From Minisyncoccota bacterium (GTDB taxonomy: Bacteria > Patescibacteriota > Minisyncoccia > Phycocordibacterales > UBA9973): a DNA stretch of 64,000 nt. Location of the stretch: contig JBAYUN010000002.1 of the NCBI GenBank assembly GCA_041675085.1, positions 15,967-79,966 on the forward strand, read 5' to 3'. Below, in pieces: positions 535 to 59,068 of this stretch (position 1 is its first letter; each line of letters begins with the position of its first letter). Below the pieces are notes generated by a model. The model saw nothing but the letters and a program-made list of their open reading frames with translations. It was not told the DNA's origin and searched no databases. The translations under genes were made by a program, and so were the position numbers.

Positions 535-2364
535 TTATCTAACCTGCCAATCTGGATTTTCCTTTATTTTATTAGTTATATTATCCATTATACTATTTAC
601 TTCTAGGTCTGTTAGGGTCTTTTCATAAGACTGGAAAACCATACGAAAACCATACGAAGTCTTCCCTTCTTTCGTAAATGAATCGAACATAATAGGACCT
701 TTGACGCAAAGCTCTGTAATATTCTCTTTTAGCAAATTCTCTAAGTTTTGACCACCTTCAGTCTCAGGTACCCAGACAGCAATATCGCGAGTAATGAATG
801 GAAAGAGTGACCACATTGCAAAAGAAGAAGGAATATGCTTTTTCTGAATGTCTGGTTGAGGCGAAGACGACCCGAGGACGTCAAGAAAAGTATTTTCTTC
901 TTCTTTTACTCTTTCTTTAATAAAATCACTTAAGGACATCTCTGTAATATTTTTACGATCTCCAAAAGCTACATGCAAAACTTCAACATTATCTTTAAAA
1001 ACTTTTCCGATTTCAAAAACCTTCACTTCTTTAATATTTAAAAGTGGTAGATTGTTTTGATTTAATTTTATACTTTCTTTTAATCCATCAGACAGATTTG
1101 TTCTTAAGAATTTTTTATCTGATGCACTAGCTAGAACTTCTACTTCCCCATTTGAAGTAAAAGAATAAGTCATAACTTCTGAATATCCCAAGCTGAGCAA
1201 AGTAGAACGAGCTTGCAAAGAATTAAAATACACTTCATTCTTTTGAGGAACAAATGCTAACTTTGGAATTTTAGGATTCAATTTATCATAACCGAGAATT
1301 CTACCAACTTCTTCTGCCATATCTTCTTCGAGATTTAAATCCAGACGCATTGATGGAATATTAATTTCATAGATAGAATCTTTTACGGTAAATTCAAAGT
1401 GATATCTTTCCAGAATATTTTGCATCTCTATTTTGGCGACAGTAATACCTAATATATTTGAAATACGATCAAGGTCAAAAGATAATTTACTTTTTTCTGC
1501 TTGAATCTGATAAACATCTACCACATCTTCAAAATTAGAAAAACTATATTCCATCAAAAGCCCTGAGAGTTCAGTCATAGCTAAATCCCCTAAAGATGGA
1601 GATAAATCATTCTCAAATCTTTTAGCCGAATCAGTAAAAATCCCGATTCTGCGTGCAGTCTTGCGGACAGCGATAGGATCAAAGTTGGCAATCTCAAGTA
1701 GAATATTCTTAGTATTATTATCAACCTCAGCCACCTTGCCACCCTTCACTCCCGCAATAGCTAAAATATTTTTCTCGTCAGCTATCACTACGTCTGTACT
1801 CTCTAATTTTACTTGCTTGTTGTCGAGGGTAGTCATCTCTTCTCCAGGGAGAGCATAACGTACCACAATAGTGCCAGTTATTTTATCCAAATCAAAGGCA
1901 TGAGCTGGTTGACCTAGATTGTACATAACGATATTGGTCGCATCTACGATATTGTTAATACTACGAGCACCTACTGACTCTAAATGCTTCACAACCCATT
2001 CTGGACTAGGGACGACTTGTACATCACGCACAATACGGCCCATATAACGACGAACGTTTGGCACGTTTATCTCTATTTTTAAATTTGTATTTTTAGGTTC
2101 AGGCTTCTTGTATTTATCTAAAGAATGTACGAAAGGGATAGATAATAATGAAGCGAGCTCTCTTGCTATACCGATATGAGAAAGTAAATCATGAGCCCGA
2201 TTCGGTAAAATATTTATATCAAAAATATAATCTTTATTCTCACCTTCTCCAATTTCTTCTACTCCCTCAACTTCACAAAGATGATAAGTAAAAATATCCT
2301 CCAGAGTTTTAGGACTCGGTGCTTCGGGAATATACCATTTTAACCAGTTATAAGATATTTTCAT
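535..2364 (-). CDS. pheT: phenylalanyl-tRNA synthetase beta subunit (short form, 609 aa)
   Basis: MKISYNWLKWYIPE start typical of PheT and a B3/4-like core. It lies immediately downstream of pheS in the same orientation. It carries an in-frame GC-rich insert (see findings). Confidence 0.8.
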   Translation of the reverse strand: MKISYNWLKWYIPEAPSPKTLEDIFTYHLCEVEGVEEIGEGENKDYIFDINILPNRAHDLLSHIGIARELASLLSIPFVHSLDKYKKPEPKNTNLKIEINVPNVRRYMGRIVRDVQVVPSPEWVVKHLESVGARSINNIVDATNIVMYNLGQPAHAFDLDKITGTIVVRYALPGEEMTTLDNKQVKLESTDVVIADEKNILAIAGVKGGKVAEVDNNTKNILLEIANFDPIAVRKTARRIGIFTDSAKRFENDLSPSLGDLAMTELSGLLMEYSFSNFEDVVDVYQIQAEKSKLSFDLDRISNILGITVAKIEMQNILERYHFEFTVKDSIYEINIPSMRLDLNLEEDMAEEVGRILGYDKLNPKIPKLAFVPQKNEVYFNSLQARSTLLSLGYSEVMTYSFTSNGEVEVLASASDKKFLRTNLSDGLKESIKLNQNNLPLLNIKEVKVFEIGKVFKDNVEVLHVAFGDRKNITEMSLSDFIKERVKEEENTFLDVLGSSSPQPDIQKKHIPSSFAMWSLFPFITRDIAVWVPETEGGQNLENLLKENITELCVKGPIMFDSFTKEGKTSYGFRMVFQSYEKTLTDLEVNSIMDNITNKIKENPDWQVR

Positions 2365-4861: not shown

Positions 4862-4901
4862 ACTCTTGAGGCCTTTGACTCTTGAGGCCTTGCCTAAAGA
4901 G
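4862..4901. repeat. REP-like palindrome, left flank of the transposase
   Basis: actcttgaggccttgcctaaagag at 4878-4901, preceded by a partial tandem copy actcttgaggcctt at 4862-4875. It is an imperfect hairpin and overlaps the transposase stop codon. Confidence 0.7.
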
Positions 4902-5556
4902 TTTTATCGTAATTAATCCAATCAAAAATTTCAGCATTGAAAGATTTCTTAGTTGGGAAATAATTTGGAAAATTTTCTAAATTTAATATCATTTTCTCAA
5001 TTCTATTTACTCCTGCAAAATCAATATAACTAGAATACAAATAATTGGAAAGATAATCTAATGATTGTTTTTTGTTTTTTACACCCTTCTCTTTCCAATC
5101 TTTTTGTATCAACTTAATAGGGTTTAAATGAATATAAGAAAATATATATTTTAAATACTTATCATTATTTATATATTGAGCTTTAAACTTACCTTCAAAT
5201 AGACCACCGGTTCTTTTATATTTAAGGTTAAAATACATAACATAAGCAGTAGAAAGTTTCTGCATAAATCGACTAACACCATTTTCCACAAGAGGTGTTA
5301 GTAGAATATGAAAATGATTTGGCATTAAACAATATGAGCCGATAGCAACTAACGGATTTTGACTTGATCTATTGTAAACAGAAACGCCTTTTAAAGAATC
5401 AGAAAAATTAAACTTATCTTCATTGTTTAAAGCATATAACAAATCTCTAAATCTTAAATAATCATTTTCATCTAAAAATATTTCTTGCTTACTATTTCCT
5501 CTGTTGTATAAATGATAAAATTCTCCTATTTCAAATTTTATCTTTCTAATTGACAT
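4894..5556 (-). CDS. REP-associated tyrosine transposase (COG1943/RayT-like, HuH Y1 transposase)
   Basis: HuH motif MPNHFHILL. The C-terminal YIHLNPIKL motif matches the COG1943 Y1 catalytic helix. It is flanked on both sides by imperfect palindromic REP-like hairpins. Confidence 0.75.
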   Translation of the reverse strand: MSIRKIKFEIGEFYHLYNRGNSKQEIFLDENDYLRFRDLLYALNNEDKFNFSDSLKGVSVYNRSSQNPLVAIGSYCLMPNHFHILLTPLVENGVSRFMQKLSTAYVMYFNLKYKRTGGLFEGKFKAQYINNDKYLKYIFSYIHLNPIKLIQKDWKEKGVKNKKQSLDYLSNYLYSSYIDFAGVNRIEKMILNLENFPNYFPTKKSFNAEIFDWINYDKTL

Positions 5557-5578: not shown

Positions 5579-5602
5579 ACTCTTGAGGCAAGGCCTAAAG
5601 AG
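5579..5602. repeat. REP-like palindrome, right flank of the transposase
   Basis: actcttgaggcaaggcctaaagag. The stem is the same as the left copy, but the 5-nt centre is inverted (ccttg versus caagg). Confidence 0.7.
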
Positions 5603-5799
5603 TATCAAAAATTGACTAACGCGCAAAACAAGGCTACACTAAAACAAGTTATTCACTCTTTTAAAAGAAAAAGTTTAAGTAACTAAATTTTTAGTTTTCT
5701 TGTCTTTTCTTATAATTAAGGCAAAAAGTTCTTTGGTAAACTTGGCATCAAATACTTGATGCAGTTTAAATTATTTTTAGTTCTTTTATATACACACTT

Positions 5800-8900: not shown

Positions 8901-9003
8901 CTTCCAGAGAATCCACAGCATCCTTCTGAGCTTTATTTAATTTCTTATATTGAGTCTCGAACAATAAATTAGACATACTTGTATTATAACTCAAAGAGAC
9001 CAT
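5983..9003 (-). CDS. UvrD/PcrA-family SF1 helicase fused to a C-terminal PD-(D/E)xK Cas4/AddB-like Fe-S nuclease domain
   Basis: Helicase motifs: I AGPGTGKT, Ia LTFTRSGVKAM, II VLVDEHQD, VVGDDRQLIYGFSGA and VENYRST. C-terminal nuclease: D…DFKTGK…RQLAMYAYL (QxxxY) plus four Cys (ECPW … CNFKPWGGKSEECEYC). Confidence 0.75.
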   Translation of the reverse strand: MVSLSYNTSMSNLLFETQYKKLNKAQKDAVDSLEGPVMVVAGPGTGKTQILALRIGNILKQTQVGADGVLCLTFTRSGVKAMKDRLLEYIGPVANDVRISTFHSFAIEIVEKHYALLDFDTMPKLLEEDEAVFLCDEILEQNQWSYLRPRGNPSMYFNDLKSLISILKRERLTPLEFLSQVEKDIKFLESDPDSISTRGESKGKLKKEIEKKIEGLEKTKEVVLFYEMYEDKKKAMSLMDYDDVLEYVVTLVEGYEDVRAEIKENYLYVLVDEHQDSSGVQNNFLQGVWGGEESPNIFVVGDDRQLIYGFSGARLSYFEEFATYFGQAKLITLVENYRSTAKILSLADNLLSSSISKEKLNSNTTGDNQIELSQYAFPRDEILGAGMYFSQKIEEGVSPKDCAILVPKNFHVRNAISILSNMGLPVSTGKSVYLFNIKQSYSFLRILNLINDPYNSVLISESLLDSTSNIEPLVAHKFLKNTKPDKITIDELISSGKDQGLFSEDGDIVKWGLKLKKWVDSRNEKISMLVSLIGNELLIDNSSTHSELLENVEVVRTFIHASLLFEQKNINPSLADFLNYFKRLESYGHNLSLATFGGNEGIEVMTLHKSKGLEYKHVWIAHMNEEVLMSEKRNNFSLPEKIKEHIKERDIESAKRELYVAITRAREFCNISYATENYNGSGLELASIIQNLPDLHFIKKNKEETESEILNNKIFGPKIFTTAIEKVEGDILEEVQTFVKENYKDIKITVSMLNNFYECPWKWYFRNFLKLPEVKGTSLALGSAVHGTIEFILKNKALPQTEDIKVAITRELNKEGVQDGIELARLEKVSYDMVNNWIEKYYKILEADYVSERSVQFRDKEFADLLMYGKLDLTERDIRGNISVTDFKTGKPKTKNEIEKVDEEGRMSAYMRQLAMYAYLIDGAEGGKKVESLRLMFLEAEDGDKNALYSTYIDNEKIDLLKRDISDYVTNLENGAWVNMKCNFKPWGGKSEECEYCKLSKSLILK

Positions 9004-9746
9004 TTTCCAACCTTGGTTCTTTTAATAGAAAAAGCTAGACTTGGTATAGATATCATATCTCCTAAGTCGTTGGCTATCGTGCGGACATACGTACCACTCG
9101 TGACTTTAGTACTAAAACTTGCGACGAAAAAATGCTTTGGCATTTTTTCGTCGCAAAGCTTCTTCTGCCAGATTTTTAAAATTTCCTTTTGACGAAAATC
9201 TCCATTCACTTTATTAACCCTAGTCTCTATGTTTTCCAAAAGTGTTTTACTCGAGATTTTTCGTAAATTTAAATATTTTAAACTCTTGATCATTACTTCT
9301 CTCTCGGGAATCTCTACAACTTTATTCTCACGTGCGTAAGTAAATAGAGGTTTGCCTTCTACGGTTTTTGAAGAATATAGTGGGTATTTTTGGACTATTT
9401 TTCCTTTAAAATGTTTTAGATTTTTCTTAATCAATTTTTCTAAATCTTCTTTCTTATGCATAGGGTAACCCTCTGTAATAACCTTACCTAGAATATCATA
9501 AGTATCAGTCTTGAAACCAAATAAAACTTCAAAATCATATTCTTTATCGAGATTCAAATACTTCTGCTTATTCTTGCATTCTTCTCCAGCTAACAATAGT
9601 AATAACCCCGAAGCCAAAGGGTCAAGTCGCCCCGCATAAGTCATCGGCACATCTAGCGGTATTTTATTCTTAACGCGAAACACCTCTAGGGATTCTAGGG
9701 GTGTTTGACCTTCTTTTTTATTTACTAAATAAAACTTTTTTTGCAT
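8991..9746 (-). CDS. truB: tRNA pseudouridine(55) synthase
   Basis: GRLDPLASGLLLLL catalytic Asp motif and overall TruB-like sequence. Confidence 0.8.
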   Translation of the reverse strand: MQKKFYLVNKKEGQTPLESLEVFRVKNKIPLDVPMTYAGRLDPLASGLLLLLAGEECKNKQKYLNLDKEYDFEVLFGFKTDTYDILGKVITEGYPMHKKEDLEKLIKKNLKHFKGKIVQKYPLYSSKTVEGKPLFTYARENKVVEIPEREVMIKSLKYLNLRKISSKTLLENIETRVNKVNGDFRQKEILKIWQKKLCDEKMPKHFFVASFSTKVTSGTYVRTIANDLGDMISIPSLAFSIKRTKVGKWSL

Positions 9747-10571: not shown

Positions 10572-12671
<2,100 letters not shown>

Positions 12672-18398: not shown

Positions 18399-19457
18399 TT
18401 AAAGCATTCTTTCTAGCCCTTTTGGGTTGAGAGAATATAGATAAGCATTCTCGATAGATATCTCACCTTTTCTAACTAAATCCAATAAAGAGTGATTGAG
18501 GTCTATCATACCTGACTCCATGCCTGTCTCTATGACGACGTCTATCTCGTGAGTTCTTTTTTCGCGAATTAGATTGGCTACAGCATTGTTGTTTAACAAT
18601 AATTCATACGCAGGGATAAGTCCTCCTGTAATTCTAGGAATTAATCTTTGAGAAAATATTCCTAATAACGAAGAAGACAATTGCACTCTGATCTGGTCTT
18701 GTTGATTACTCGGGAAAGAGTCTATGATTCTGTCTATGGTTTGAGAAGCGTTGTTGGTGTGGAGAGTAGACAAGACCAAGTGACCTGTCTCAGCTGCAGT
18801 CACAGCGGTAGCGATAGTCTCAGGAGTACGCATCTCACCTATCATGATAACATTTACGTCTTCACGAAATACAGACTGTAGGGCTTTATGGAAATCTTTG
18901 GTATCAATACCGACTTCGCGTTGATTGATGATAGATTTATCGGGAGTGTACATGTATTCTATTGGGTCTTCTATAGTGACTATGTGACGGTTTTGCTCTT
19001 TGTTTATGATATTAATCATAGAAGAAAGAGTGGTGGATTTACCTTGACCGACTGGACCTACGACTAAAAAGAAACCTTGCTTCTTACGTGCAATATCAGA
19101 AATAATTTGAGGGAGATTGAGTTCGTCCATAGGGCGAACTTTTGGGATAAGTCTCATGACTACGTTAATAAAACCTTTTTGAAAAAATGCATTACAACGT
19201 AAACGAGCTTCACCTTTGAAATCATACGAGAAATCTAATTCTTGGTTTTCCAAAAAAGAATCTAGTCTTTTTTGATCTATCATAATAGATAAAATACCAA
19301 GCATGTCTTCTTTGGACAATATTGGATGTTTTACTAAAAAAATAAGTTCTCCGTACACACGCATAGCCGGCACTCGTCCGCCACCTAAATGGAGATCCGA
19401 TCCTCCTTCACGTATAACTGTTAAAATAAGATTTTCTAATTCTTGTTTATAATCCAT
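18399..19457 (-). CDS. pilT: twitching motility ATPase PilT (retraction ATPase)
   Basis: ARLRCNAF motif, Walker A GPVGQGKSTT, Walker B/His box, about 350 aa. Confidence 0.8.
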   Translation of the reverse strand: MDYKQELENLILTVIREGGSDLHLGGGRVPAMRVYGELIFLVKHPILSKEDMLGILSIMIDQKRLDSFLENQELDFSYDFKGEARLRCNAFFQKGFINVVMRLIPKVRPMDELNLPQIISDIARKKQGFFLVVGPVGQGKSTTLSSMINIINKEQNRHIVTIEDPIEYMYTPDKSIINQREVGIDTKDFHKALQSVFREDVNVIMIGEMRTPETIATAVTAAETGHLVLSTLHTNNASQTIDRIIDSFPSNQQDQIRVQLSSSLLGIFSQRLIPRITGGLIPAYELLLNNNAVANLIREKRTHEIDVVIETGMESGMIDLNHSLLDLVRKGEISIENAYLYSLNPKGLERML

Positions 19458-19905: not shown

Positions 19906-21663
19906 TTATTCTCCTTCTGTAGCAAAATTGTACACATCACTATAAGGGATAATACCTTCGATGGCTTTCAACATGGCGTCTTCTTTCATAGTAATCATAC
20001 CGTTATTTCTAGCGATTTTGTAAATCTCAGCATAAGTAGGATTTTTCAAAATAGCATTTTGAATCTCTTTATCTATCTTGAACATTTCAAAAATAGCAGT
20101 ACGCCCTTTGGTTCCAGAGGCACATTCAGTAGAAGACACAGTATCGTACATCTCGGGTTTGAGAATAATTTTACTTCTAAATTCTTCTGGTAAATCTTTG
20201 ATTTCTTCTTCTATTTGTAATTTGATACTAGGGTCCATAGGGACTAGTTTGCGTGAAGTTGGGCAAGTAGTACGAGCCAGACGCTGAGCTACAGATAATA
20301 TCAAAGTCGGAGCGATAAGGTACGGATCAACTCCCATGTCCACAAGACGAGGAATAGCTCCGATGGAATTGTTGGTGTGGAGAGTAGACAATACCAAGTG
20401 ACCAGTCAAGGCGGCTTGAATAGCGAGCTGAGCTGTTTCTTTATCACGTATTTCTCCTACGATAATAATATCAGGGTCCTGACGTAAGATAGAACGTAAT
20501 CCAGATGCAAAAGTATAACCTATCTCTGGCAAAACTTGGGATTGGTTGATGTCTGGCATATGATACTCGACTGGGTCTTCGAGGGTGACGATATTACTCG
20601 TCTCTTTATCGAGTTCATTCATTACAGAGTAAAGTGTGGTTGATTTTCCGGAACCAGTAGGACCAGTAACTAGTATAAGTCCGTACGGCTTACGTATAGC
20701 TTCTTTGATAAGTCCTAAGTTTGTAGGAGACATGCCGAGCTCGTCTAAAGCTTTTACTCCCCTTTCAGAATCCAAAATACGCATCACAACTTTTTCTCCA
20801 TAATATCCCGGCATAGTCGATACACGAAAATCTATTTTGCGTCCTTCGAGATTGGTGCTAAAAGATCCATCTTGAGGTTTTCTTTTTTCATCTAGACGTA
20901 ATTTTGCTAAAATTTTAATACGAGCCACAACACCGTTGTGAACATTGGTAGGTAAAATAATAGTAGTATGGAGTGAGCCGTCAACACGATAACGGACTTT
21001 TACTTTCTCACCTCCATGCTCTATGTGAATATCAGAAGCACTACCTTCTATGGCATTTTTTAGTATAACTGCTACGATTTTAATAATCGGTGCATCTTCT
21101 ACTATTTTAGCTTCTTTACCTTGTGTGATATTTTTGATTTCATCGTTAAGACTATTGTCATCAATAACTTTAGTTTGATTTTCTTTTACTTCTTCAGGCT
21201 TATCGAAACCGTCTAGAGCCTCTTCGACTTGCACAGAGACTCCTTCATAGGCAGACATGATTTCTTCATAGTCACTCTTTGTAATAAGGAAAATTTTGAA
21301 AGGTAGACCTATCTTTGAAGAGATGAATTGTAAAGCATCTATACCTTGCATATTCTCAGGATCAGTAATACCAACTTCGAGCACACCTTCGTTCAATGCA
21401 AAAGGGGCAAAATGATAATATTTTGCTGAATCTGCGGGTATGTATTTTAAAACACTAAATGCAATATCTTTTTTATTGATTTTACGTGTTGGTAGATTAA
21501 AAAATTCACCTTTTACTATGAGCGACTGATCTTCAGTAACGCCGAATTCATGTAAAGCAGTATCGATATCGCCACCGTACTTTTGATTGGCACGATTTTT
21601 AATCTCCAATATTTGGTTCTGATTTATTAAACCTCTTTTTACTAATTCTTCTAAGAAACTCAT
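19906..21663 (-). CDS. pilB: type IV pilus assembly ATPase PilB (GspE family)
   Basis: N-terminal GSPII domain, Walker A GPTGSGKSTTL, Asp box, His box. Confidence 0.85.
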   Translation of the reverse strand: MSFLEELVKRGLINQNQILEIKNRANQKYGGDIDTALHEFGVTEDQSLIVKGEFFNLPTRKINKKDIAFSVLKYIPADSAKYYHFAPFALNEGVLEVGITDPENMQGIDALQFISSKIGLPFKIFLITKSDYEEIMSAYEGVSVQVEEALDGFDKPEEVKENQTKVIDDNSLNDEIKNITQGKEAKIVEDAPIIKIVAVILKNAIEGSASDIHIEHGGEKVKVRYRVDGSLHTTIILPTNVHNGVVARIKILAKLRLDEKRKPQDGSFSTNLEGRKIDFRVSTMPGYYGEKVVMRILDSERGVKALDELGMSPTNLGLIKEAIRKPYGLILVTGPTGSGKSTTLYSVMNELDKETSNIVTLEDPVEYHMPDINQSQVLPEIGYTFASGLRSILRQDPDIIIVGEIRDKETAQLAIQAALTGHLVLSTLHTNNSIGAIPRLVDMGVDPYLIAPTLILSVAQRLARTTCPTSRKLVPMDPSIKLQIEEEIKDLPEEFRSKIILKPEMYDTVSSTECASGTKGRTAIFEMFKIDKEIQNAILKNPTYAEIYKIARNNGMITMKEDAMLKAIEGIIPYSDVYNFATEGE

Positions 21664-36718: not shown

Positions 36719-36842
36719 CCCGTTAAATATTTTTGATTATTTTATAATTATATTGTACGTTATTATTATTTAATTACCTATCATTTACATATACCCGTTG
36801 TTAAAATTTTTAACGGGATTCATATACCTATCTTTACATAAA

Positions 36843-36912
36843 AAGACAAACCCCGTCAATCTCGATTGACGGGGTAAATAAAAAAGCGGTAAGTCATATT
36901 ACCGCTTTAAAA
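36843..36912 (-). terminator. tandem intrinsic terminators downstream of the membrane protein gene
   Basis: ccccgtcaat-ctcg-attgacgggg and agcggtaa-gtcata-ttaccgct hairpins, each followed by a T-run on the minus-strand transcript. Confidence 0.6.
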
Positions 36913-37805: not shown

Positions 37806-37889
37806 TTAAATAAATTTAAGAGTTAAAAAATTATTTCCTAAAAACTATATCATAAAATACAGAAAAAACAAATAAAAAACGGTGATCGA

Positions 37890-37945
37890 GATTGACGGGG
37901 CAAATAAAAAAAGCGGTGTAAAACCGCTTTTAAGAATTATCCAAT
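37890..37945 (-). terminator. intrinsic terminator, a diverged copy of the 36843-36926 module
   Basis: aagcggt-gtaaa-accgctt hairpin plus the shared flanks gattgacgggg…aaataaaaaa and aattatccaat. Confidence 0.55.
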
Positions 37946-47774: not shown

Positions 47775-50700
47775 TTATTTTTGTATTTTAATTTTAAATA
47801 CTAATTCCCCTACTTTTACTTCTATTCCGTCATTTGACTCAAAAGAAATCTCGCGAATACCTGCCACTTTTTTGAAATCATCTTCAAATTTCTTAACTAT
47901 ATTTTCTCCTGTACTATCTGTCTCAATAAATAAAGTTATCATATCACTAGGTATCAATCCTTCTTTTTTGCGAGAATCTTGTATAGAACGTAAAAATTCA
48001 CGATACAATCCTTCTTCCTTTAATTCTGAAGTTATATTTATATCCAAATTAATTTCTTCTCCGAATAAAATTGCTTTGACATTCAATTCATCTTTTATAA
48101 TCTCTAAAAATTCAGCATTCAAATCTTTATTGGTAACAGTAAAAGAAGCAAGTGGTTGACGTACTGGTAGATTATTTTTCTGACGCATTTGTAAGCCAGT
48201 AGAAACTAAATCTCTAACTATTTGCATCTTCTCTATAACCTCAACACTAGAACCTAAAACCTGACCTGTAGGCCACTCTGCCAAATGCACACTTTCTGCG
48301 TCTGCATTATTTCTAAGTTTTAACCAAATATCTTCAGAAGCAAAAGGAGTGAATGGAGCCATGATTTTTACCAAATTCTTCAACACAAAATACAAAGTTT
48401 GTTTTGCTTCCATATCTCCATCTTTAATCCTGTCTCTATTTCGACGTAAATACCAAGTAGAAAGATCTCCGATAAAATCTCGCAACGCACGAGCTGGTTC
48501 TAAAACTTTATAATTATCTAACTCTAAAGTTGAGAGTTCTACCAATTCACCAAGCTTCGCTAAAATCCATTGATCCAAAATATTTGCACTTTGAGTAAAT
48601 TCATTCTTCTCTAAGTCACGGTCTCTATAAAGTTCATAAAAAGCGAGCACGTTATAAAGAAGTCCGAAAACCTGACTGTGTAGTATAGCTACAGTCTTCT
48701 CATCAAAGTTCTTGCTCTCGCCTGGTTGATTCACTGAGTACATCCAGAGACGCAAAGTATCGACTCCGTATTTCTCTATCATAGAAAAGGGTTCAACGAT
48801 ATTACCTTGAGATTTACTCATCTTTTTACCTTTAGCATCAAGTAAATGCCCGAGACAGATAACGTTTTTATAAGCCTTACCGCGACCCATCAAAGTCCCT
48901 ACTGCGTGAAGCGTATAGAACCATCCTCTTGTCTGATCGATAGCTTCTGAAATATAATCCGCCGGATAACCTACTCCTTCGATACGTTCTTTGTTCTCAA
49001 AAGGATAATGATCCTGAGCGAAAGGCATAGCTCCACTATCAAACCACACGTCCATAACGTCTTTGATTCTCTTATATTCTTTACCGTCACGTTCCAAGAC
49101 CACCTCGTCAACATAAGGACGATGCAAATCTAGAGCAAACTTTTCATCATGAGGAAAAGGCACAAAGTCCAAAGTACTGAATTCTGAATTCGCTAGATAA
49201 TGAAAATCTTTTTTAGAATTAATTAATTCTAAAGTCTCAGCTAGTGATAAATTCTCCGATCCAGAATACATAAGCCAAGCTGGGCCACCGTGAGTCACAA
49301 ATAAAATATTCTTATCTTGATACTTGTTTTCTATATCAAAAAGAAAATCCATAACTCGAGTTTGCACATCTTTGTATGATTCATCACCCTGATTTTTCTT
49401 ATCAAAGTTCTCTAAAGTCTTTGGATAATCTTTATGATAATCGTCCCAGTTTTTACCTTCATAAGAAAGCACTTGCATCTCACCTATTCGTACATCGGTC
49501 AAAATATCTTCTTCTTTAAGATTCAATACTGTCGCAATAATCTTTGAAGTCTCAAGAGTACGATAATAAGGTGAACTTATAATCAAATCAATATTTTTAT
49601 CTTTTAAGGATTCAGCCGAAACACGAGTAGCTTCTTTGCCTAAATCTGTGAGAATACTTCCCTTTTCTATTTTTGTACTGACTATGTTTTTAGTATTATT
49701 TTCTGTCTGACCATGACGCATTACAAAATATTTATTATTACTTTTTTTAGTATATTTTTTTAGAGTCGCGATACTATCTACAACAAGAGTCTCTTTGTCT
49801 TCTGAGACCCAAATAGGAAGCGGAGTTCCCCAATATCTTTCGCGAGAAATAGCCCAGTCTTTTATACCCGCGAGCCATTCTCCAAAACGCCCTTCCCTAG
49901 TATGCAAAGGTTCCCAGTTGATAGTCTTGTTCTCTTCTATCATTCTCTCTTTGATATTTTTGTCAGTCATGCGAATATACCAAGAATCCCGCGCATAATA
50001 AATCAGTGCGGTTTTGCAACGCCAACAATGAGGATAAGAGTGCTCGTAAAGTTCTTTGTGAAAAAATAGATTCTTCTCTTGCAAATATTTAATAATATCT
50101 ACGTCGAGAGTCGGCTTGCCACTCTCGTCTTTTTCTTTTACAAAACGACCACTCAAGAAATCCATACCTTGAATAAATTTACCTTCGAGGTTCACCACAT
50201 GATGCTTTGGTAGTCCTATCTCTGTACCTAGATCAAAGTCATCTGCTCCATACATCACCGCAGTATGTACAACTCCAGTACCGTCTTCTGTGGTCACGAA
50301 ATCTGCTCCGTAAACTTTGAAAGCTTTTTCTAGTTTTGGTTTTTCACTATCTGAGATAGTACTTTCTAGATAAGGGAAAAGTGGTTCGTATTCTAGACCA
50401 ACAAGTTCAGAGCCTTTGAATTTTTCTATAATCTCAAAACCTTCTCCTAAAAGAGATATTCTAGCTTCTGCCAAAATAAAAAAATCTTCACCTTTCTTAA
50501 CTTTCACATAATCTATATCTTTCCCTACAGCTAGAGCCACGTTACCAGGTAAAGTCCAAGGAGTTGTAGTCCAAGCGAGGATAAAAGTATTAACAAAAAT
50601 ATTTTCCTGTTCGGGTCTCTCGCAGGCTGACGAGCCGAGAGTGAGCGCTGAGCCAGCAGGCTCAGACAGCGACCCGACAGGAATATTATTTTTGTTTTTT

Positions 50701-51335
50701 AATTTAAACTTCACATACAAAGACAAGTCTTTCACATCTTCATAGCCTTGCGCGAGTTCATGAGAAGACAAAGTCGTCCCGCAACGAGGACACCAAGGCA
50801 CAACTTTATAATCTTTATAAATTAATTTTTGCTCATCTATTTTACCGACAACATTCCAAAGAGATTCAATATAATTATTCTCATAAGTTGCATAAGGATT
50901 TTCTTGATCTACCCAATACCCTATTCTCTTTGTAAAAGTATTCCAAAATTCTAAATATTCCCAAACGCTTTCTTTGCATTCACGATTGAACTTTGCGATA
51001 CCGTATTCTTCAATAGCTTTTTTAGAGTTTAGTCCGAGTTTCTTCTCTACTTGCAACTCTACAGGCAATCCGTGAGTGTCCCAACCTCCTTTGCGGCGCA
51101 CATAAAAACCTCGCATAGTTTTATATCGAGGGATCACATCTTTAAAAGCTCGAGCTTCGAGGTGATGAATTCCAGGTTTACCGTTGGCAGTAGGAGGACC
51201 TTCGTAAAATACGAATTCCTTTTCTCCTGCCCTACTTTGCATAGATTTTTGAAAGATTTGATTCTGTTCCCAGAACTCTAAAACTTTCTCTTCTCGCAAT
51301 GCACTTTCACTTTTTTGATTTTTATTTTCTTCCAT
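47775..51335 (-). CDS. ileS: isoleucyl-tRNA synthetase carrying an inserted histidine phosphatase (PGAM-like) domain
   Basis: Class I motifs PGIHHLE (HIGH-like), WTTTPWTLP, DVWFDSG and KMSKSQGN. The internal domain of about 210 aa has RHGQTENN, IISSPYYRTLETS and ILFVTHGG histidine-phosphatase signatures. 1186 aa with no stop codons. Confidence 0.85.
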   Translation of the reverse strand: MEENKNQKSESALREEKVLEFWEQNQIFQKSMQSRAGEKEFVFYEGPPTANGKPGIHHLEARAFKDVIPRYKTMRGFYVRRKGGWDTHGLPVELQVEKKLGLNSKKAIEEYGIAKFNRECKESVWEYLEFWNTFTKRIGYWVDQENPYATYENNYIESLWNVVGKIDEQKLIYKDYKVVPWCPRCGTTLSSHELAQGYEDVKDLSLYVKFKLKNKNNIPVGSLSEPAGSALTLGSSACERPEQENIFVNTFILAWTTTPWTLPGNVALAVGKDIDYVKVKKGEDFFILAEARISLLGEGFEIIEKFKGSELVGLEYEPLFPYLESTISDSEKPKLEKAFKVYGADFVTTEDGTGVVHTAVMYGADDFDLGTEIGLPKHHVVNLEGKFIQGMDFLSGRFVKEKDESGKPTLDVDIIKYLQEKNLFFHKELYEHSYPHCWRCKTALIYYARDSWYIRMTDKNIKERMIEENKTINWEPLHTREGRFGEWLAGIKDWAISRERYWGTPLPIWVSEDKETLVVDSIATLKKYTKKSNNKYFVMRHGQTENNTKNIVSTKIEKGSILTDLGKEATRVSAESLKDKNIDLIISSPYYRTLETSKIIATVLNLKEEDILTDVRIGEMQVLSYEGKNWDDYHKDYPKTLENFDKKNQGDESYKDVQTRVMDFLFDIENKYQDKNILFVTHGGPAWLMYSGSENLSLAETLELINSKKDFHYLANSEFSTLDFVPFPHDEKFALDLHRPYVDEVVLERDGKEYKRIKDVMDVWFDSGAMPFAQDHYPFENKERIEGVGYPADYISEAIDQTRGWFYTLHAVGTLMGRGKAYKNVICLGHLLDAKGKKMSKSQGNIVEPFSMIEKYGVDTLRLWMYSVNQPGESKNFDEKTVAILHSQVFGLLYNVLAFYELYRDRDLEKNEFTQSANILDQWILAKLGELVELSTLELDNYKVLEPARALRDFIGDLSTWYLRRNRDRIKDGDMEAKQTLYFVLKNLVKIMAPFTPFASEDIWLKLRNNADAESVHLAEWPTGQVLGSSVEVIEKMQIVRDLVSTGLQMRQKNNLPVRQPLASFTVTNKDLNAEFLEIIKDELNVKAILFGEEINLDINITSELKEEGLYREFLRSIQDSRKKEGLIPSDMITLFIETDSTGENIVKKFEDDFKKVAGIREISFESNDGIEVKVGELVFKIKIQK

Positions 51336-51521: not shown

Positions 51522-53294
51522 CTACATTCTCTCTGGACTTTCAATACCTAAAAGATAAAGTCCGTTTTGCATGATGCGAGTAAAGGCTACCGTGAGGGCG
51601 AGTTTGTACGGAGACTCAGAGTCTTCGGTATTTACTATTTGATTATTCCCGTAGAAATTATTGAAGTTATGAGCGAGTTCTATTAGATAATGAGTTATAT
51701 AATGTGGAGCGTATTCGTTTTGAGCGCGAGATACAATTTCTGGGAATTTGTATAATATTTTTTCAATTTCTAAAATCTCTTGTTTGTCTGTAGCAGTAGC
51801 CTCTTTGATATTTTCTCTTTTAGCTTTTTCTAAAATAGAGTTAGCGCGAGCAAAAGAATATTGCAAATACGGACCTGAATCCCCTTCGAAAGAAATAGAC
51901 TTTTCAAAATCATAAATAATATCTCCTCCGATAGCTTGACGCAAAATAGAAAACTTCAAGGCTCCTACTCCGACAGAATTCGCAACTTTTTGCTTCTCAT
52001 CATCATCCCAATCCCTGTCTTTTACTTTCTCTAGGATAGAATCTGAGACGTCTTTGATAAGAGATTCCCCAGTAATGATATTCCCTTTTCTAGAACTCAT
52101 CTTGCCTGTAGCGAACCGTAGCATGCCGTGAGTTATATGCTTCATACGGGATTCGTATTCTGGGTGAATTAGAGAAATAGCTTTTGAGACAACTTTCATA
52201 TATTCACCTTGCTCAATAGCAGTAATCACAATAGAAGTATCCGGATTTTCTTTTTCAAATTTTGTCACAGTGAGCCCTATCTCTTTGGTCTCATAAGTAG
52301 GCAAACCTTCACTATTTATGAAGACACGTGTGTGGAGTTTCGGATCATATTTCTCTCCATGGAAAACTATCGCGCCGTTAGACTCTTCAAATACTTTAGC
52401 ACCGTTCTCGCCTAAATTCTTATTCACTATCTCGCGACCACGTTCGGCCATAGCGCTCTCAAAGAAATAGTGCTTGAACTTTGTACCCAAGACTTTATAT
52501 ATAGTCTCAAAAGCTTCAAGCGTAATAACTCTACCTAACATGTAGATCTCATTTATTTTCTCGTCTGACTTTTCATAAACTTGTTTGTTGATTTTATTTA
52601 TTTCTTTTTTAATCTCCTCATCTTCTTCGTACAAATTCGAAGCGAAAGAATAACATTCACCGATATATAGAGCTTGTTCGTTTACAGACTTAGATACGTC
52701 TGGCATACCTTTTTGCAAGATTCCATAAATTGCTTTCGCTACGTGAAGCCCGACGTCACCTTGGTAGTTGGCACGGATTGTCTCGGCTCCAGAGTATTCT
52801 ACGAGACGAGAGAGGGATTCCCCTATCGCATTACTCATCAAATGCCCAATATGAAAAGGCTTGAAAGGATTCGGGTCGGTATATTCTACCATGATTATCT
52901 CACCTTCTTTTGAATTATTTTTACCAAATTTTTCATCTTCAAGAATTTCATTTAAAGAATTAATAAAGAATTTCTTAGATAAATAGAAATTAATAAATCC
53001 AGGACCCGCAACTTCTATTTGTGCAATAGATTCCTCAAGGTCGGACCTTGGGGCTTCTTTAAGGTCCGACCTTAAAAATTCAACTATTTTTTCTGCTAAT
53101 TCACGTGGATTAGTTTTACTTTCTTTCGCAAATACCATAGCTACATTCGTAGAAAAATCCCCCATTTTTAAATCAGCTGGATGCTCCACAGAAAAAGAAG
53201 CCTCGCTGTTTATATCAAGTTTTTTTAAAGCCTCTTTTATTAAATTTTCTAACTTTGTTTTTATGTTCATTTTATTTATGCCCTGTTGTGCCAA
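51522..53294 (-). CDS. argS: arginyl-tRNA synthetase
   Basis: Arg_tRNA_synt_N region …IEVAGPGFINFYL, HIGH as PFKPFHIGHL, and the C-terminal DALR domain. The start is possibly the internal MNIKTKL (about 53270). Confidence 0.85.
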   Translation of the reverse strand: MAQQGINKMNIKTKLENLIKEALKKLDINSEASFSVEHPADLKMGDFSTNVAMVFAKESKTNPRELAEKIVEFLRSDLKEAPRSDLEESIAQIEVAGPGFINFYLSKKFFINSLNEILEDEKFGKNNSKEGEIIMVEYTDPNPFKPFHIGHLMSNAIGESLSRLVEYSGAETIRANYQGDVGLHVAKAIYGILQKGMPDVSKSVNEQALYIGECYSFASNLYEEDEEIKKEINKINKQVYEKSDEKINEIYMLGRVITLEAFETIYKVLGTKFKHYFFESAMAERGREIVNKNLGENGAKVFEESNGAIVFHGEKYDPKLHTRVFINSEGLPTYETKEIGLTVTKFEKENPDTSIVITAIEQGEYMKVVSKAISLIHPEYESRMKHITHGMLRFATGKMSSRKGNIITGESLIKDVSDSILEKVKDRDWDDDEKQKVANSVGVGALKFSILRQAIGGDIIYDFEKSISFEGDSGPYLQYSFARANSILEKAKRENIKEATATDKQEILEIEKILYKFPEIVSRAQNEYAPHYITHYLIELAHNFNNFYGNNQIVNTEDSESPYKLALTVAFTRIMQNGLYLLGIESPERM

Positions 53295-56955: not shown

Positions 56956-58204
56956 ATTTCTTTGGTATTGGGTGTTTAAGAGCTAGCTTTTTAATCTCAG
57001 CTTTGATTTTATTTTTTATTTTTTTATTATCTTTATTTTTTAGAGTTTCGATCATAAGCTCGGCGACTCTTTTACAGTCACTCTCTTTAAATCCTCTTGT
57101 AGTTATCGCCGGAGTACCGAAACGAATTCCTGAAGGGTCGAGTGGCTTCCTCGTATCCCCAGCGATAGAATTCATATTCAAAGTTATATTCACTTCGTCG
57201 AGGACCGTCTGCGCTTCTTTACCAGTAACCCCAAGAGATCCGTACACATCAGCCAGTATCAAATGATTCTCTGTGCCTCCAGCTATCATACGAATCTTAT
57301 TTTTCTTAAAAACTTCTGCCATAGCTTTCGCGTTCTTTAAAACTTGTTTGGCATAGATTTTAAACTTTGGACTAAGTGCTTCTCCGAAGGCAACGGCTTT
57401 CGCAGCGATAGTATGCATATGCGGACCGCCTTGGATTCCAGGAAAAATAGCTTTATCTATTTTTTTCGCAAGCTCTTCATCCTCGCGAGTAAGTATTATT
57501 CCACCTCTTGGACCTCGGAGAGTCTTGTGAGTTGTACTTGTGATAATATCGAAGCCGTCAGAGAAAGGATTCCTTAATGCCCCACCCGCTATAAGTCCGG
57601 CGATATGAGCCATATCTGCGACTGTGATAGCTCCGACTTCACGCGCAATCTCAACAAACTTTTTATAATTTAAATTTTTAGGATAAGCCGAGAATCCAGC
57701 AAGGATAATTTTCGGTTTATGCTTAATTGCCATATTACGCAAATCTTCATAATCTATCTCCCCTGTATCAGGATTACTCATTTTATAAGTTACAAATTTA
57801 TATATCTGCGCAGGCAGAGTCATAGGATGTCCGTGAGTCAAATGCCCTCCATGAGAGAGATCCATACCGAGCACAGTGTCACCAGGAGATAAAATAGCAG
57901 AATACACAGCCAAGTTTGCCGGAGCACCAGAGTGAGCCTGCACGTTGGCAAATTTGCATTTAAATAATTTCTTGATTCTCTCTATAGCGAGATTCTCTAC
58001 CGCGTCGGTGTATTCTTGTCCGCCGTAGTATCGGCGTCCTGGATAACCTTCAGAATATTTATTAGTAAAGATAGAGCCGTTAGCAATCAACACATCCTCG
58101 GATACGTAGTTCTCAGAAGGTATTAATTCTAGTCCTTCGGCTTGCCTTTTGGCTTCTAGTTTAATAAGTTGTGCTACTTTTTTATCTTTCATTTTTGCTT
58201 GCAT
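56948..58204 (-). CDS. glyA: serine hydroxymethyltransferase
   Basis: LIPSENYVS…GYPGRRYYGG…TTHKTLRGPRGG (PLP-lysine region). Confidence 0.9.
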   Translation of the reverse strand: MQAKMKDKKVAQLIKLEAKRQAEGLELIPSENYVSEDVLIANGSIFTNKYSEGYPGRRYYGGQEYTDAVENLAIERIKKLFKCKFANVQAHSGAPANLAVYSAILSPGDTVLGMDLSHGGHLTHGHPMTLPAQIYKFVTYKMSNPDTGEIDYEDLRNMAIKHKPKIILAGFSAYPKNLNYKKFVEIAREVGAITVADMAHIAGLIAGGALRNPFSDGFDIITSTTHKTLRGPRGGIILTREDEELAKKIDKAIFPGIQGGPHMHTIAAKAVAFGEALSPKFKIYAKQVLKNAKAMAEVFKKNKIRMIAGGTENHLILADVYGSLGVTGKEAQTVLDEVNITLNMNSIAGDTRKPLDPSGIRFGTPAITTRGFKESDCKRVAELMIETLKNKDNKKIKNKIKAEIKKLALKHPIPKKFV

Positions 58205-59052
58205 TCTTTTATTCTATCACAGGTAAATACTATTGTCCCTAGAGTATCCGTACGCAAGATTTCGACCCCAAAACTCTCTAAAATAGACAGGATTTCTTTA
58301 TGAGGGTGCCCATAGCTATTACCTTGCCCTCTCGAAATGACGGCGTACTTAGGTCGTACTTTTTCCAAGAATTCTTTACTTGTAGAAGTCCGGGACCCAT
58401 GATGACCTATTTTTAAAATATCACTTCTTAAATACTCTTCATTGTACTTCTCTAAGACTATCTCTTCAGTTCTTGTGGTAGCGTCTCCAGTCAGCATAAT
58501 AGTCGACTCTCCGTAAACAAGTCGAGCGACAATAGAGCCGTCATTATTATCCCAAATAGATACATCTCGATCAGGAAATAAAATCTCAATATACGCTCCC
58601 CCGCCGATATCTATCCGCGTACCCGCCCGAGCGAGCACTCGTTTAGTATTTTGAGACTTTATTTCTTTTTCAATACTTTTATAAATAGTAGAGTCATTAT
58701 AAGTCCCCGGCTCGAATACGACATCAACTTTATAATTTTTCAAAATATCTAAAAATCCTCCAATATGATCTAGGTCTGGATTTGTGATTATTAGCATGTC
58801 GATACTTTTATCATAAAAAGGAATTAACTTTGAAAGCTCGCTCAAAGTTTTCTTGTCGCGACCGCCGTCTATCACAATCTGCAGACCGCTCGGAGATTCA
58901 ATAAAAAGAGCATCTCCCTGACCCACATCAAGTATAGCGAAAGTCAGATTAGGTTCTTTCTTGATAGAAGTTAAATAAAAGAGTACAAAGACAAAAAATA
59001 ACAAAAATAGAAATATATAAAATAAACCACATTTTTCTAAGCTGTCTCGCAT
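58189..59052 (-). CDS. ComEC C-terminal-type metallo-β-lactamase domain protein (stand-alone)
   Basis: N-terminal transmembrane anchor, then ILDVGQGDA…DHIGG…HHGS…GHP MBL metal ligands as in the ComEC/Rec2 lactamase domain. Confidence 0.7.
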   Translation of the reverse strand: MRDSLEKCGLFYIFLFLLFFVFVLFYLTSIKKEPNLTFAILDVGQGDALFIESPSGLQIVIDGGRDKKTLSELSKLIPFYDKSIDMLIITNPDLDHIGGFLDILKNYKVDVVFEPGTYNDSTIYKSIEKEIKSQNTKRVLARAGTRIDIGGGAYIEILFPDRDVSIWDNNDGSIVARLVYGESTIMLTGDATTRTEEIVLEKYNEEYLRSDILKIGHHGSRTSTSKEFLEKVRPKYAVISRGQGNSYGHPHKEILSILESFGVEILRTDTLGTIVFTCDRIKECKQK

Positions 59053-59068
59053 GCTATAATATTAACAT

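Follow-up and report, generated by a model that had tools for sequence, protein, structure and literature searches.

Why should two unrelated essential genes contain almost the same stretch of GC-rich DNA, each time as a translated part of the protein? The question is raised by 64,000 nucleotides of a Minisyncoccota bacterium (contig JBAYUN010000002.1, positions 15,967 to 79,966; hereafter the window), in which a 32-mer inside pheT, the gene for the phenylalanine--tRNA ligase beta subunit, recurs inside ligA, the gene for NAD-dependent DNA ligase. Genomes of the candidate phyla radiation (CPR, or Patescibacteria) are tiny and gene-dense, and classical mobile DNA is believed to be scarce in them. 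In this report, we describe the 32-mer as part of the apex of a long imperfect hairpin with relatives in many CPR genes. Our data suggest that these hairpins are probably a family of non-autonomous palindromic mobile elements, similar in kind to the Rickettsia palindromic elements (RPEs), translated in frame with their host genes and spread through Patescibacteria.

The shared core and its hairpins in pheT and ligA

The window is AT-rich (30-37% GC), and the 32-mer TCTGGTTGAGGCGAAGACGACCCGAGGACGTC at 851-882 has a single other match in it, at 11347-11378 on the same strand, with 3 mismatches. A preliminary description of this DNA had reported the two copies as differing at 3 of 32 positions and lying in the same orientation relative to their genes, and both points hold; in 100 dinucleotide-preserving shuffles no match to the 32-mer appeared, the chance expectation being 0. 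The common stretch is one base longer than reported, at 33 nt (Table 1), and a third copy in the window was found neither with a covariance model run without filters nor in a Hamming scan that tolerated as many as 13 mismatches. The covariance model (R1) gave the ligA copy 85.3 bits (E 4e-21) and the pheT copy 70.1 bits (E 7e-17, at 823-905), and the next best match reached 19. As for the host genes, the PheT of the window is 100% identical to an NCBI protein named PheT from Candidatus Paceibacterota, and the nearest database match of its LigA is annotated as LigA, likewise from Candidatus Paceibacterota.

One account of such a match would be chance, or an artefact of assembly or amplification (a chimeric palindrome, for instance), and the preliminary description had named a sequencing or assembly artefact as what could overturn its claim. 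We found nothing in favor of this account, and it is already refuted: besides the shuffles, three contigs encode the identical PheT protein, and the two that are shown come from independent assemblies (an ENA metagenome assembly and a Logan SRA assembly); therefore the pheT/ligA match is not an assembly artefact. Moreover, the ~95 occurrences of the family described below come from metagenome-assembled genomes (MAGs) and metagenomes of many separate projects.

Each core caps a long imperfect hairpin (Table 1). The inverted repeats that had been noticed beside the pheT core, at 837-849 and 882-894, are real but merely form the inner part of this longer hairpin; similarly, the shared core stands, but the element here extends over ~80-90 nt and not 32-59 nt as first described. 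In pheT, a hairpin scan gave a 16-bp outer stem with 2 mismatches around a 60-nt interior, and the copy folds at -26.1 kcal/mol on the plus strand (z -3.2), with z -0.5 on the mRNA strand. The ligA arms, 23 nt long and 91% complementary (11321-11343 and 11377-11399), are much better than those of pheT; no more than one other inverted repeat in the window is as good, the stem reaches ~26 bp if the inner pairs are included, and the mRNA strand of this copy folds at -33.6 kcal/mol (z -5.4). The core itself lengthens the stem through the plus-strand pairing GGUCU-GGUUG / CGACC-(CGA)-GGACC, which leaves a 9-nt loop; two of these pairs are G.U and become C.A mismatches on the mRNA strand.

The pheT element codes for PheT residues ~486-516 (..KEEENTFLDVLGSSSPQPDIQKKHIPSSF..), and comparison of the loop in 120 orthologues places the ligA element in the loop of a Cys4 zinc finger (CPVCG...C..KCPA). 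Orientation and reading frame relative to the host are alike in the two copies, and the Ser/Pro-rich loop of the preliminary description is indeed encoded in both proteins, as DVLGSSSPQPD in PheT and in the same frame in LigA. We built an AlphaFold2 model of the window PheT with 120 homologues; its mean predicted local distance difference test (pLDDT) value is 86.3, and its sole segment below 50 is residues 489-517. Because this segment coincides with the residues encoded by the element, the insert is predicted to be disordered and to link helix 478-489 to the C-terminal domain. Judging from the open frames and the disorder prediction, the element is apparently read through as a floppy extra loop of the protein.

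Table 1. Positions in the window of the two hairpin copies, their host genes and a further gene discussed in the text
Feature	Position	Strand	Basis and remarks
pheT (phenylalanine--tRNA ligase beta subunit, 609 aa)	535..2364	-	ORF (open reading frame) list; Pfam B3_4, B5, tRNA_synthFbeta, FDX-ACB
pheT hairpin element, arms and core, degenerate copy	818..909	-	Hairpin scan, R1, fold
pheT GC-rich apical core	850..882	-	Sense strand GACGTCCTCGGGTCGTCTTCGCCTCAACCAGAC, read as D-V-L-G-S-S-S-P-Q-P-D
ligA (NAD-dependent DNA ligase, 698 aa)	10572..12668	-	ORF list; Pfam
ligA hairpin element, well-preserved copy	11321..11399	-	Inverted repeat, fold, R1
ligA core, 30/33 identical to pheT core	11346..11378	-	Sequence match
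Y1 (HUH) gene, 220 aa, resembling RAYT (REP-associated tyrosine transposase; REP, repetitive extragenic palindromic element), motifs HFH and YIHLNP	4894..5556	-	Pfam Y1_Tnp, E 2.8e-7

A dispersed family and its two reading frames

A search with CGGGTCGNCTTCGNCTCAACC against one genome per prokaryotic species returned 43 stretches, 37 of them in Patescibacteria MAGs (labelled Paceibacterota, Nomura-, Adler- and Kaiserbacteria, Minisyncoccia and 'Saccharibacteria'), with up to 5 in one genome. All 37 share additional flanks, approximately AAAAGGTCCT-core-AGACCATTTT. The other 6 matches, in high-GC genomes outside the CPR (Streptomyces, Actinomycetota, Myxococcales, a beta-proteobacterium, 'Chryseobacterium' and a Nanobdellota archaeon), have nothing in common beyond the 19 fixed bases and were treated as chance matches in GC-rich DNA. 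Metagenomes yielded 57 further stretches (groundwater, for example from Hainich or Rifle, was the source of many copies), and a scan of viral contigs gave 0 matches and thus no sign of a phage vector. After removal of duplicates 70 distinct copies remained, and a covariance model built from them recognized four more, diverged copies in the 717 kb of loci around the copies, among them a second copy in a uvrC gene that already held one and an intergenic hairpin with a different apex; the maximum per MAG among the relatives is 5 exact copies plus 1 diverged. The wider motif search that the preliminary description had recommended has therefore revealed a larger family than it supposed. We found no paper describing this family: a full-text literature search, with partial coverage such that absence is not proven, gave no description of such elements in CPR/Patescibacteria. 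In addition, Rfam at its gathering threshold reported only 3 tRNAs in the whole window, and a permissive Rfam scan of the ligA copy gave only microRNA-like hairpins of at most 27 bits against cutoffs of 33-211 (70 for the best).

All CPR copies found by exact match sit in long ORFs, which represent ~20 housekeeping gene families. Pfam identifies the hosts as RecJ, IleS (at two sites), MnmA, PheT, Dus, RecG, LepA, Tgt, UvrA, UvrB, UvrC, the delta' subunit of DNA polymerase III (Pol III), IF-2, TsaD, PGK, an FAD-linked oxidase and a glycosidase, to which the LigA of the window is added; a handful of host ORFs have no Pfam match. The argument that the shared nucleotides reflect inserted DNA and not protein conservation, made at first from two genes, is borne out by the occurrence of the core with related arms in ~20 unrelated gene families.

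The exact matches, 38 from the genome scan and 57 from the metagenome scan, make up ~95 occurrences in which duplicates of the same loci are included, and 92 of the 95 use one of two frames, one per orientation. The sense frame reads ..(K/Q)VLGS[A/P/S]S[P/S/A]QPD[H/Y].., and the inverted frame reads ..NGLVEAKPTRGP.. (QNGLVEAK[P/T]TRGPF); when the consensus is read by eye, 5 of its 6 frames are free of stops. Genomes rich in AT use the VLGS..QPD frame only, and those of ~52-57% GC use both. By sequence reasoning, the two frames in use are the pair that an in-place flip of the palindrome-bounded CAAAAGGTCC...GACCATTTTG would exchange, and at the tgt, dus and Pol III delta' sites the element lies in opposite orientations in different genomes.

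These frames bear on whether the element is translated at all. It might be excised from the mRNA, or ribosomes might pass over it, in the manner of the 'byp' GC clusters of Magnusiomyces mitochondria or the gap of T4 gene 60. A GC-rich hairpin within the coding sequence of an AT-rich genome would suit such a process, and there is precedent in GC clusters of protein-coding regions that are bypassed in translation (PMC8811140). However, the 70 distinct copies, translated in the sense frame over 81 nt, yield 66 distinct peptides without a stop, the copies are restricted to two frames, and their lengths keep the host reading frame open downstream, even where an internal length change has occurred (L024:2102-2182, in which the frame is still restored). 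Since bypass or splicing would need none of these properties, we give non-translation very little credence. The uvrC gene of L024 holds two copies, at 2102-2182 and 1628-1710, and one of them has a shortened core and a mixed frame (RSSGRYAQPD).

Another idea is that the peptide is the unit of selection, the VLGSxSxQPD motif having been copied between genes as an interaction, modification or targeting signal. The single sense frame in all AT-rich genomes and its dominance elsewhere, the invariance of L, G, S, Q and P in 34 peptides and the constant placement of the insert in exposed loops or linkers would agree with this idea. At the same sites, however, inverted copies give the unrelated peptide NGLVEAKPTRGP and other core families take the place of the motif; the synonymous third positions of the core do not vary and make GC-rich codons in a 34% GC genome, although the scan pattern itself had fixed most of these positions; the constraint on the flanking arms is that of a nucleic-acid hairpin and not that of a protein; and the segment is predicted to be disordered. 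A copied peptide motif of this kind is therefore highly improbable.

The constraint on the arms is evident from comparison of the copies. The unit measures ~72 nt where the host is GC-rich and ~80-95 nt where it is AT-rich, as in the window, and its arms vary between copies yet stay complementary. The apical ~35 nt are nearly invariant in hosts of 30-57% GC, but the copies were ascertained by exact match to 19-26 core bases, whose constancy is at least partly by construction and is not counted as evidence. Outside the scan-fixed bases, TCCT upstream and AGA downstream are invariant in 39 copies although the genome scan did not require them (the metagenome-scan copies added later had both within the search pattern). 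In ungapped alignments of 39 and 70 copies, which were not fitted to any structure, 79.9% and 81.3% of arm cells are paired, respectively, compared with 59-62% for shuffled partners (61.8% for the 70 copies) and 36-49% for structures slid by 1-3 columns; double-sided changes number 500 against 179 expected, and 25 of 29 arm pairs covary.

Like arms recur in unrelated genes, namely in mnmA and lepA (L012/L017) and in tsaD and pgk (L040/L050), and are also common to pheT, FAD oxidase and ileS copies (L047, L039 and L029). In GC-rich hosts these arm-sharing pairs delimit a unit of ~72 nt, CA(A/G)AACC...GGTT(C/T)TG, without a flanking direct repeat. We considered whether the arms might be inverted copies of the flanking target DNA and rejected this as a general rule, identical arm types being found in unrelated genes; as far as sequence comparison can tell, the arms belong to the moving unit and are not copied from the target. 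A nested insertion inside a core was also seen (L033:363-479, CCTGTCCGTCAGACAGGCGGG).

Gain, loss and decay at the ligA and pheT sites

The zinc-finger loop of LigA (Cys2-Cys3) is 17-21 aa long in ~30 orthologues, including the five closest (81-85% identity), and 40 aa long in the window. Thus the ligA insert, missing from all five, is lineage-specific, as had been suspected; in the relatives L051 and L053 the site is empty, the net difference being 60 nt. An orthologue of 73% identity has the same element at the same place, with the same arm type and a mutated core, and ~50 other orthologues have loops of 33-53 aa that represent at least 8 other peptide families. The ligA copy is young and intact.

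An alignment of PheT orthologues had been proposed as a check on the insert. Consistent with an insert, the closest orthologue (93% identity) is without half of the element, but the site is not simply filled or empty: the linker before FDX-ACB contains a member or relic of a related hairpin superfamily in nearly every Paceibacteria PheT, that is, in essentially all of the 120 orthologues examined. In the 93%- and 73%-identical orthologues (L005 and L006), the inner left arm is missing together with the left half of the core, 36 nt in all, and an 83%-identical orthologue (L007) retains only the left arm and a scrambled remnant. Other orthologues have the same arms (..TCRCCTGATRCTTTTGCTCAG // CAAAAGCATACAGG..) around a nested, longer apical hairpin or around diverged sister cores; in L113 the apical mini-hairpin of the linker has been swapped for a longer one. 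The pheT copy of the window is an older and partly degraded one, in a linker that has housed such elements since early in the evolution of Paceibacteria.

The pheT site also illustrates how the arms may change. The copies of the window and L004 share the core, whereas their outer arms differ block-wise, each being complementary to itself, and L006 combines the left flank of one of these two copies with the right flank of the other. From these sequences we infer that at least one arm at this site was rewritten from the other in one concerted event, by a template switch or conversion within the hairpin, and block-wise correction of arm on arm at the pheT site is likely.

Mobility, host function and relation to known repeats

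We propose a model whereby copies arise by transposition of the whole hairpin, probably as folded single-stranded DNA, with a trans-acting enzyme that would recognize the conserved asymmetric apex. Copies would survive only where ~24-30 extra residues make a tolerated, disordered surface loop, and this requirement would account for their restriction to inter-domain linkers or loops and to two hydrophilic, Gly/Ser/Pro-rich frames. Beyond point mutation, complementarity of the arms would be kept partly by concerted arm-on-arm correction (intrastrand template switching or conversion), and inversion, or insertion in either orientation, would exchange the two frames.

Several observations weigh against this model. 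No transposase or other mobilizing enzyme is tied to the element, and tblastn over the 717 kb of copy loci found no Y1 gene near copies except for one syntenic orthologue. Flanking direct repeats show no clear excess over chimeric controls, the hairpin ends are fuzzy, and the paralogous pairs L040/L050 and L012/L017 show no target-site duplication (TSD). Even the filled and empty states of ligA compare ambiguously, with a net 60 nt against a 79-nt hairpin. Furthermore, 0 of the ~95 exact-family occurrences is intergenic, which is unusual for a selfish MITE (miniature inverted-repeat transposable element); the same loops (in mnmA, dus, tgt, ileS, Pol III delta' and pheT) are filled in very distant genomes; and the core is constant across hosts of 30% to 57% GC. 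These last three observations are fitted by a host-selected or site-specific process at least as well as by random transposition followed by selection, and we grant a host-function or site-specific model a real, if minor, chance of being correct.

In its explicit form, this alternative regards the hairpins as host-selected cis elements, acting as DNA or RNA, and not as selfish DNA; they might be RNase III or protein-binding sites that tune housekeeping expression, or chromosomal sites for a DNA-binding or DNA-structuring factor, a conserved protein of Patescibacteria would then recognize the apical core, and the arms would need only to pair. The intragenic position, the recurrent loops and the near-invariance of the core, which includes bases outside the scan pattern, all agree with this, as do the strong arm covariation and the better folding of the plus-strand (antisense) form through G.U pairs, which hints at a strand-specific structure. 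Nevertheless, the five nearest relatives have an empty ligA site and show no sign of harm, decayed or half-deleted copies exist (L052, L005, L006 and L007), and both orientations are allowed, even at one site (tgt, dus and Pol III delta'). In addition, the intragenic positions bear no relation to gene starts or ends, the host genes have no common pathway beyond their core status, and many different core families fill the same loops. We therefore judge selected cis elements to be unlikely, and continue to prefer translated mobile hairpins.

The gene in the window that resembles RAYT (Table 1), the only HUH/Y1 gene nearby, was considered as the mobilizer of the element. It lies 4 kb from the pheT copy, scores 39 bits with NCBIfam REP_Tyr_transpos, below the cutoff of 80, and is bracketed by inverted hairpins, ACTCTTGAGGC(CTT/AAG)GCCTAAAGAGT, at 4862-4902 and 5579-5603. 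TTGAGGC is all that these hairpins have in common with the core; they are absent from the rest of the window and from the sampled DNA beyond the syntenic locus, and gene and hairpins are kept at the same spot in sister species (L003, L004 and L047). We dropped this assignment because the flanking hairpins are different and because tblastn finds the gene only at the syntenic spot; it is a candidate lead for the enzyme class only, and its unlike hairpins and single location are further points against the transposition model.

Like RPEs, which moreover are found at orthologous sites of related species, the element is a small palindromic repeat that forms a long stem-loop and is scattered over a reduced genome. 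RPEs are palindromes of 105-146 bp that lie in frame in 19 Rickettsia protein genes, the gmk product being active; they are conserved over their entire length, are common in intergenic DNA as well and are restricted to Rickettsia (PMC2229807). Both kinds sit in frame inside conserved housekeeping genes, keep the host ORF and are tolerated as an extra peptide (PMC2229807). In contrast to RPEs, the Patescibacteria element is ~72-95 nt long, combines a conserved, asymmetric, GC-rich apex with fast-changing, covarying arms, belongs to another phylum, and has its exact-family copies inside ORFs only and in two frames only. It is thus not an RPE proper, being set apart by host phylum, size and architecture, and relatedness in sequence is not expected; what it shares with the RPE-like kind is a dispersed, multi-copy, palindromic stem-loop, placed in frame in conserved genes, with filled and empty sites.

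REPs, together with REPINs (REP doublets forming hairpins) and the RAYT enzymes, resemble the element in being GC-rich imperfect hairpins in many copies, without a visible target-site duplication, that likely act as folded single strands. REPs are extragenic, 20-40 nt long and marked by a GTAG or CGTC tag (PMC3733652), whereas the Patescibacteria element is intragenic (0 of ~95 occurrences intergenic) and longer; neither tag was seen on reading the conserved core, although no search aimed at the tag was made. The GC clusters of yeast mitochondria are also short GC-rich palindromes in an AT-rich genome; they can insert in frame (var1), their loops evolve fast, and they merge and shuffle into new clusters (PMC8811140). 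Nested or swapped apical parts likewise occur in the Patescibacteria element (L033, L113, L111 and L112). GC clusters, however, belong to organelles and lie mostly between genes, their AG/TAG terminal repeats are interpreted as target duplications, and some of them are bypassed in translation; in the Patescibacteria element, moreover, it is the apex that is conserved and the stem that varies.

Bacterial MITEs (Correia/NEMIS, ERIC, RU-2 and those of Coxiella) are similarly non-autonomous and shorter than 200 bp, with terminal inverted repeats and a transcript that makes a stable stem-loop, but they usually have inverted repeats matching a parent insertion sequence and TA or other target-site duplications, and they are mainly intergenic; none of these traits could be demonstrated in the Patescibacteria element. 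Finally, mitochondrial genes of Nematomorpha contain long inverted repeats within coding sequence, both arms of which are translated (PMC6649704), and there too structure and coding are maintained together; those repeats, however, are perfect, are made from conserved coding sequence and do not form a dispersed family with a common core. The Patescibacteria element is without the defining features of REP/RAYT systems and bypass elements, and appears to be without those of classical MITEs.

A bolder and decidedly tentative reading would extend beyond the exact family to a Patescibacteria superfamily of 'coding hairpins', flippable between two peptides, with apices recognized by a phylum-wide trans-acting enzyme and with self-corrected arms. 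Under this reading, at least 8 peptide families may share a few loops of PheT, LigA, IleS, MnmA, Dus, Tgt and others. As mobile or convertible cassettes that target hairpins and leave no TSD, they would constitute a new class and not just decaying RPE-like junk, and the host may have co-opted them, perhaps as RNase III or DNA-structure sites.

If translated mobile hairpins are the correct explanation, CPR core proteins (aminoacyl-tRNA synthetases, enzymes of DNA repair and tRNA modification, and translation factors) contain large numbers of translated palindromic inserts, which are gained, lost and exchanged at hot-spot loops, and many unexplained 'CPR-specific insertions' and length differences in protein alignments would be accounted for. 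The family would also be a second, independent RPE-type case in a reduced genome, and would thereby support in-frame survival as the only niche for selfish DNA where intergenic space is scarce. The ~70 strongly covarying copies would be a tractable system for finding the machinery that recognizes hairpins for mobilization or correction, and the covariance model could be used to mask inserts in CPR phylogenomics and structure prediction.

The window contains further hairpins inside genes. At 50592-50696, within ileS (47775-51335, minus strand), lies a different in-frame palindrome of 105 nt, of which ~75 nt make up a GC-rich core. Its fold has an energy of -50 kcal/mol (z -6.9), and the peptide that it encodes is ..NIPVGSLSEPAGSALTLGSSACERPEQENI... 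Its site is just before ILAWTTTPW, where L023, L029 and L032 have an element of the pheT/ligA type. The IleS of the window (1186 aa) also has a histidine-phosphatase domain inserted in the middle of the synthetase (the motif ..FVMRHGQTENN.. in the window, His_Phos_1 by Pfam in relatives), and the same insertion is found in L011, L023, L029, L032 and L045. A third kind of in-frame hairpin, at 53035-53075 within argS (51522-53294, minus strand), has an 18-bp stem, AAGGTCGGACCTT...AAGGTCCGACCTT (z -6.2), and encodes RSDLKEAPRSDLEE; other Paceibacteria have peptides like it (..RSGLGNSERPDLEE..) in their LigA loop. A fourth, at 58575-58665 in an ORF of metallo-beta-lactamase fold (58189-59061, minus strand), has 20-bp AT-rich arms and a 51-nt GC-rich core.

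Other repeats in the window are of different kinds. The truB ORF (8991-9746, minus strand) contains at 9119-9156 a perfect 17-bp hairpin with a 4-nt loop (TTGCGACGAAAAAATGC TTTG GCATTTTTTCGTCGCAA), near the point where the downstream helicase gene starts in overlap. The two copies of a 39-nt direct repeat (18751-18789 and 20369-20407), which are 95% identical and separated by 1.6 kb, probably represent a motif shared by paralogous genes. In an AT-rich stretch, at 36840-36885 and ~1 kb away at 37866-37911, there are two related hairpins that resemble terminators (CCCCGTCAATCTCGATTGACGGGG and a variant).

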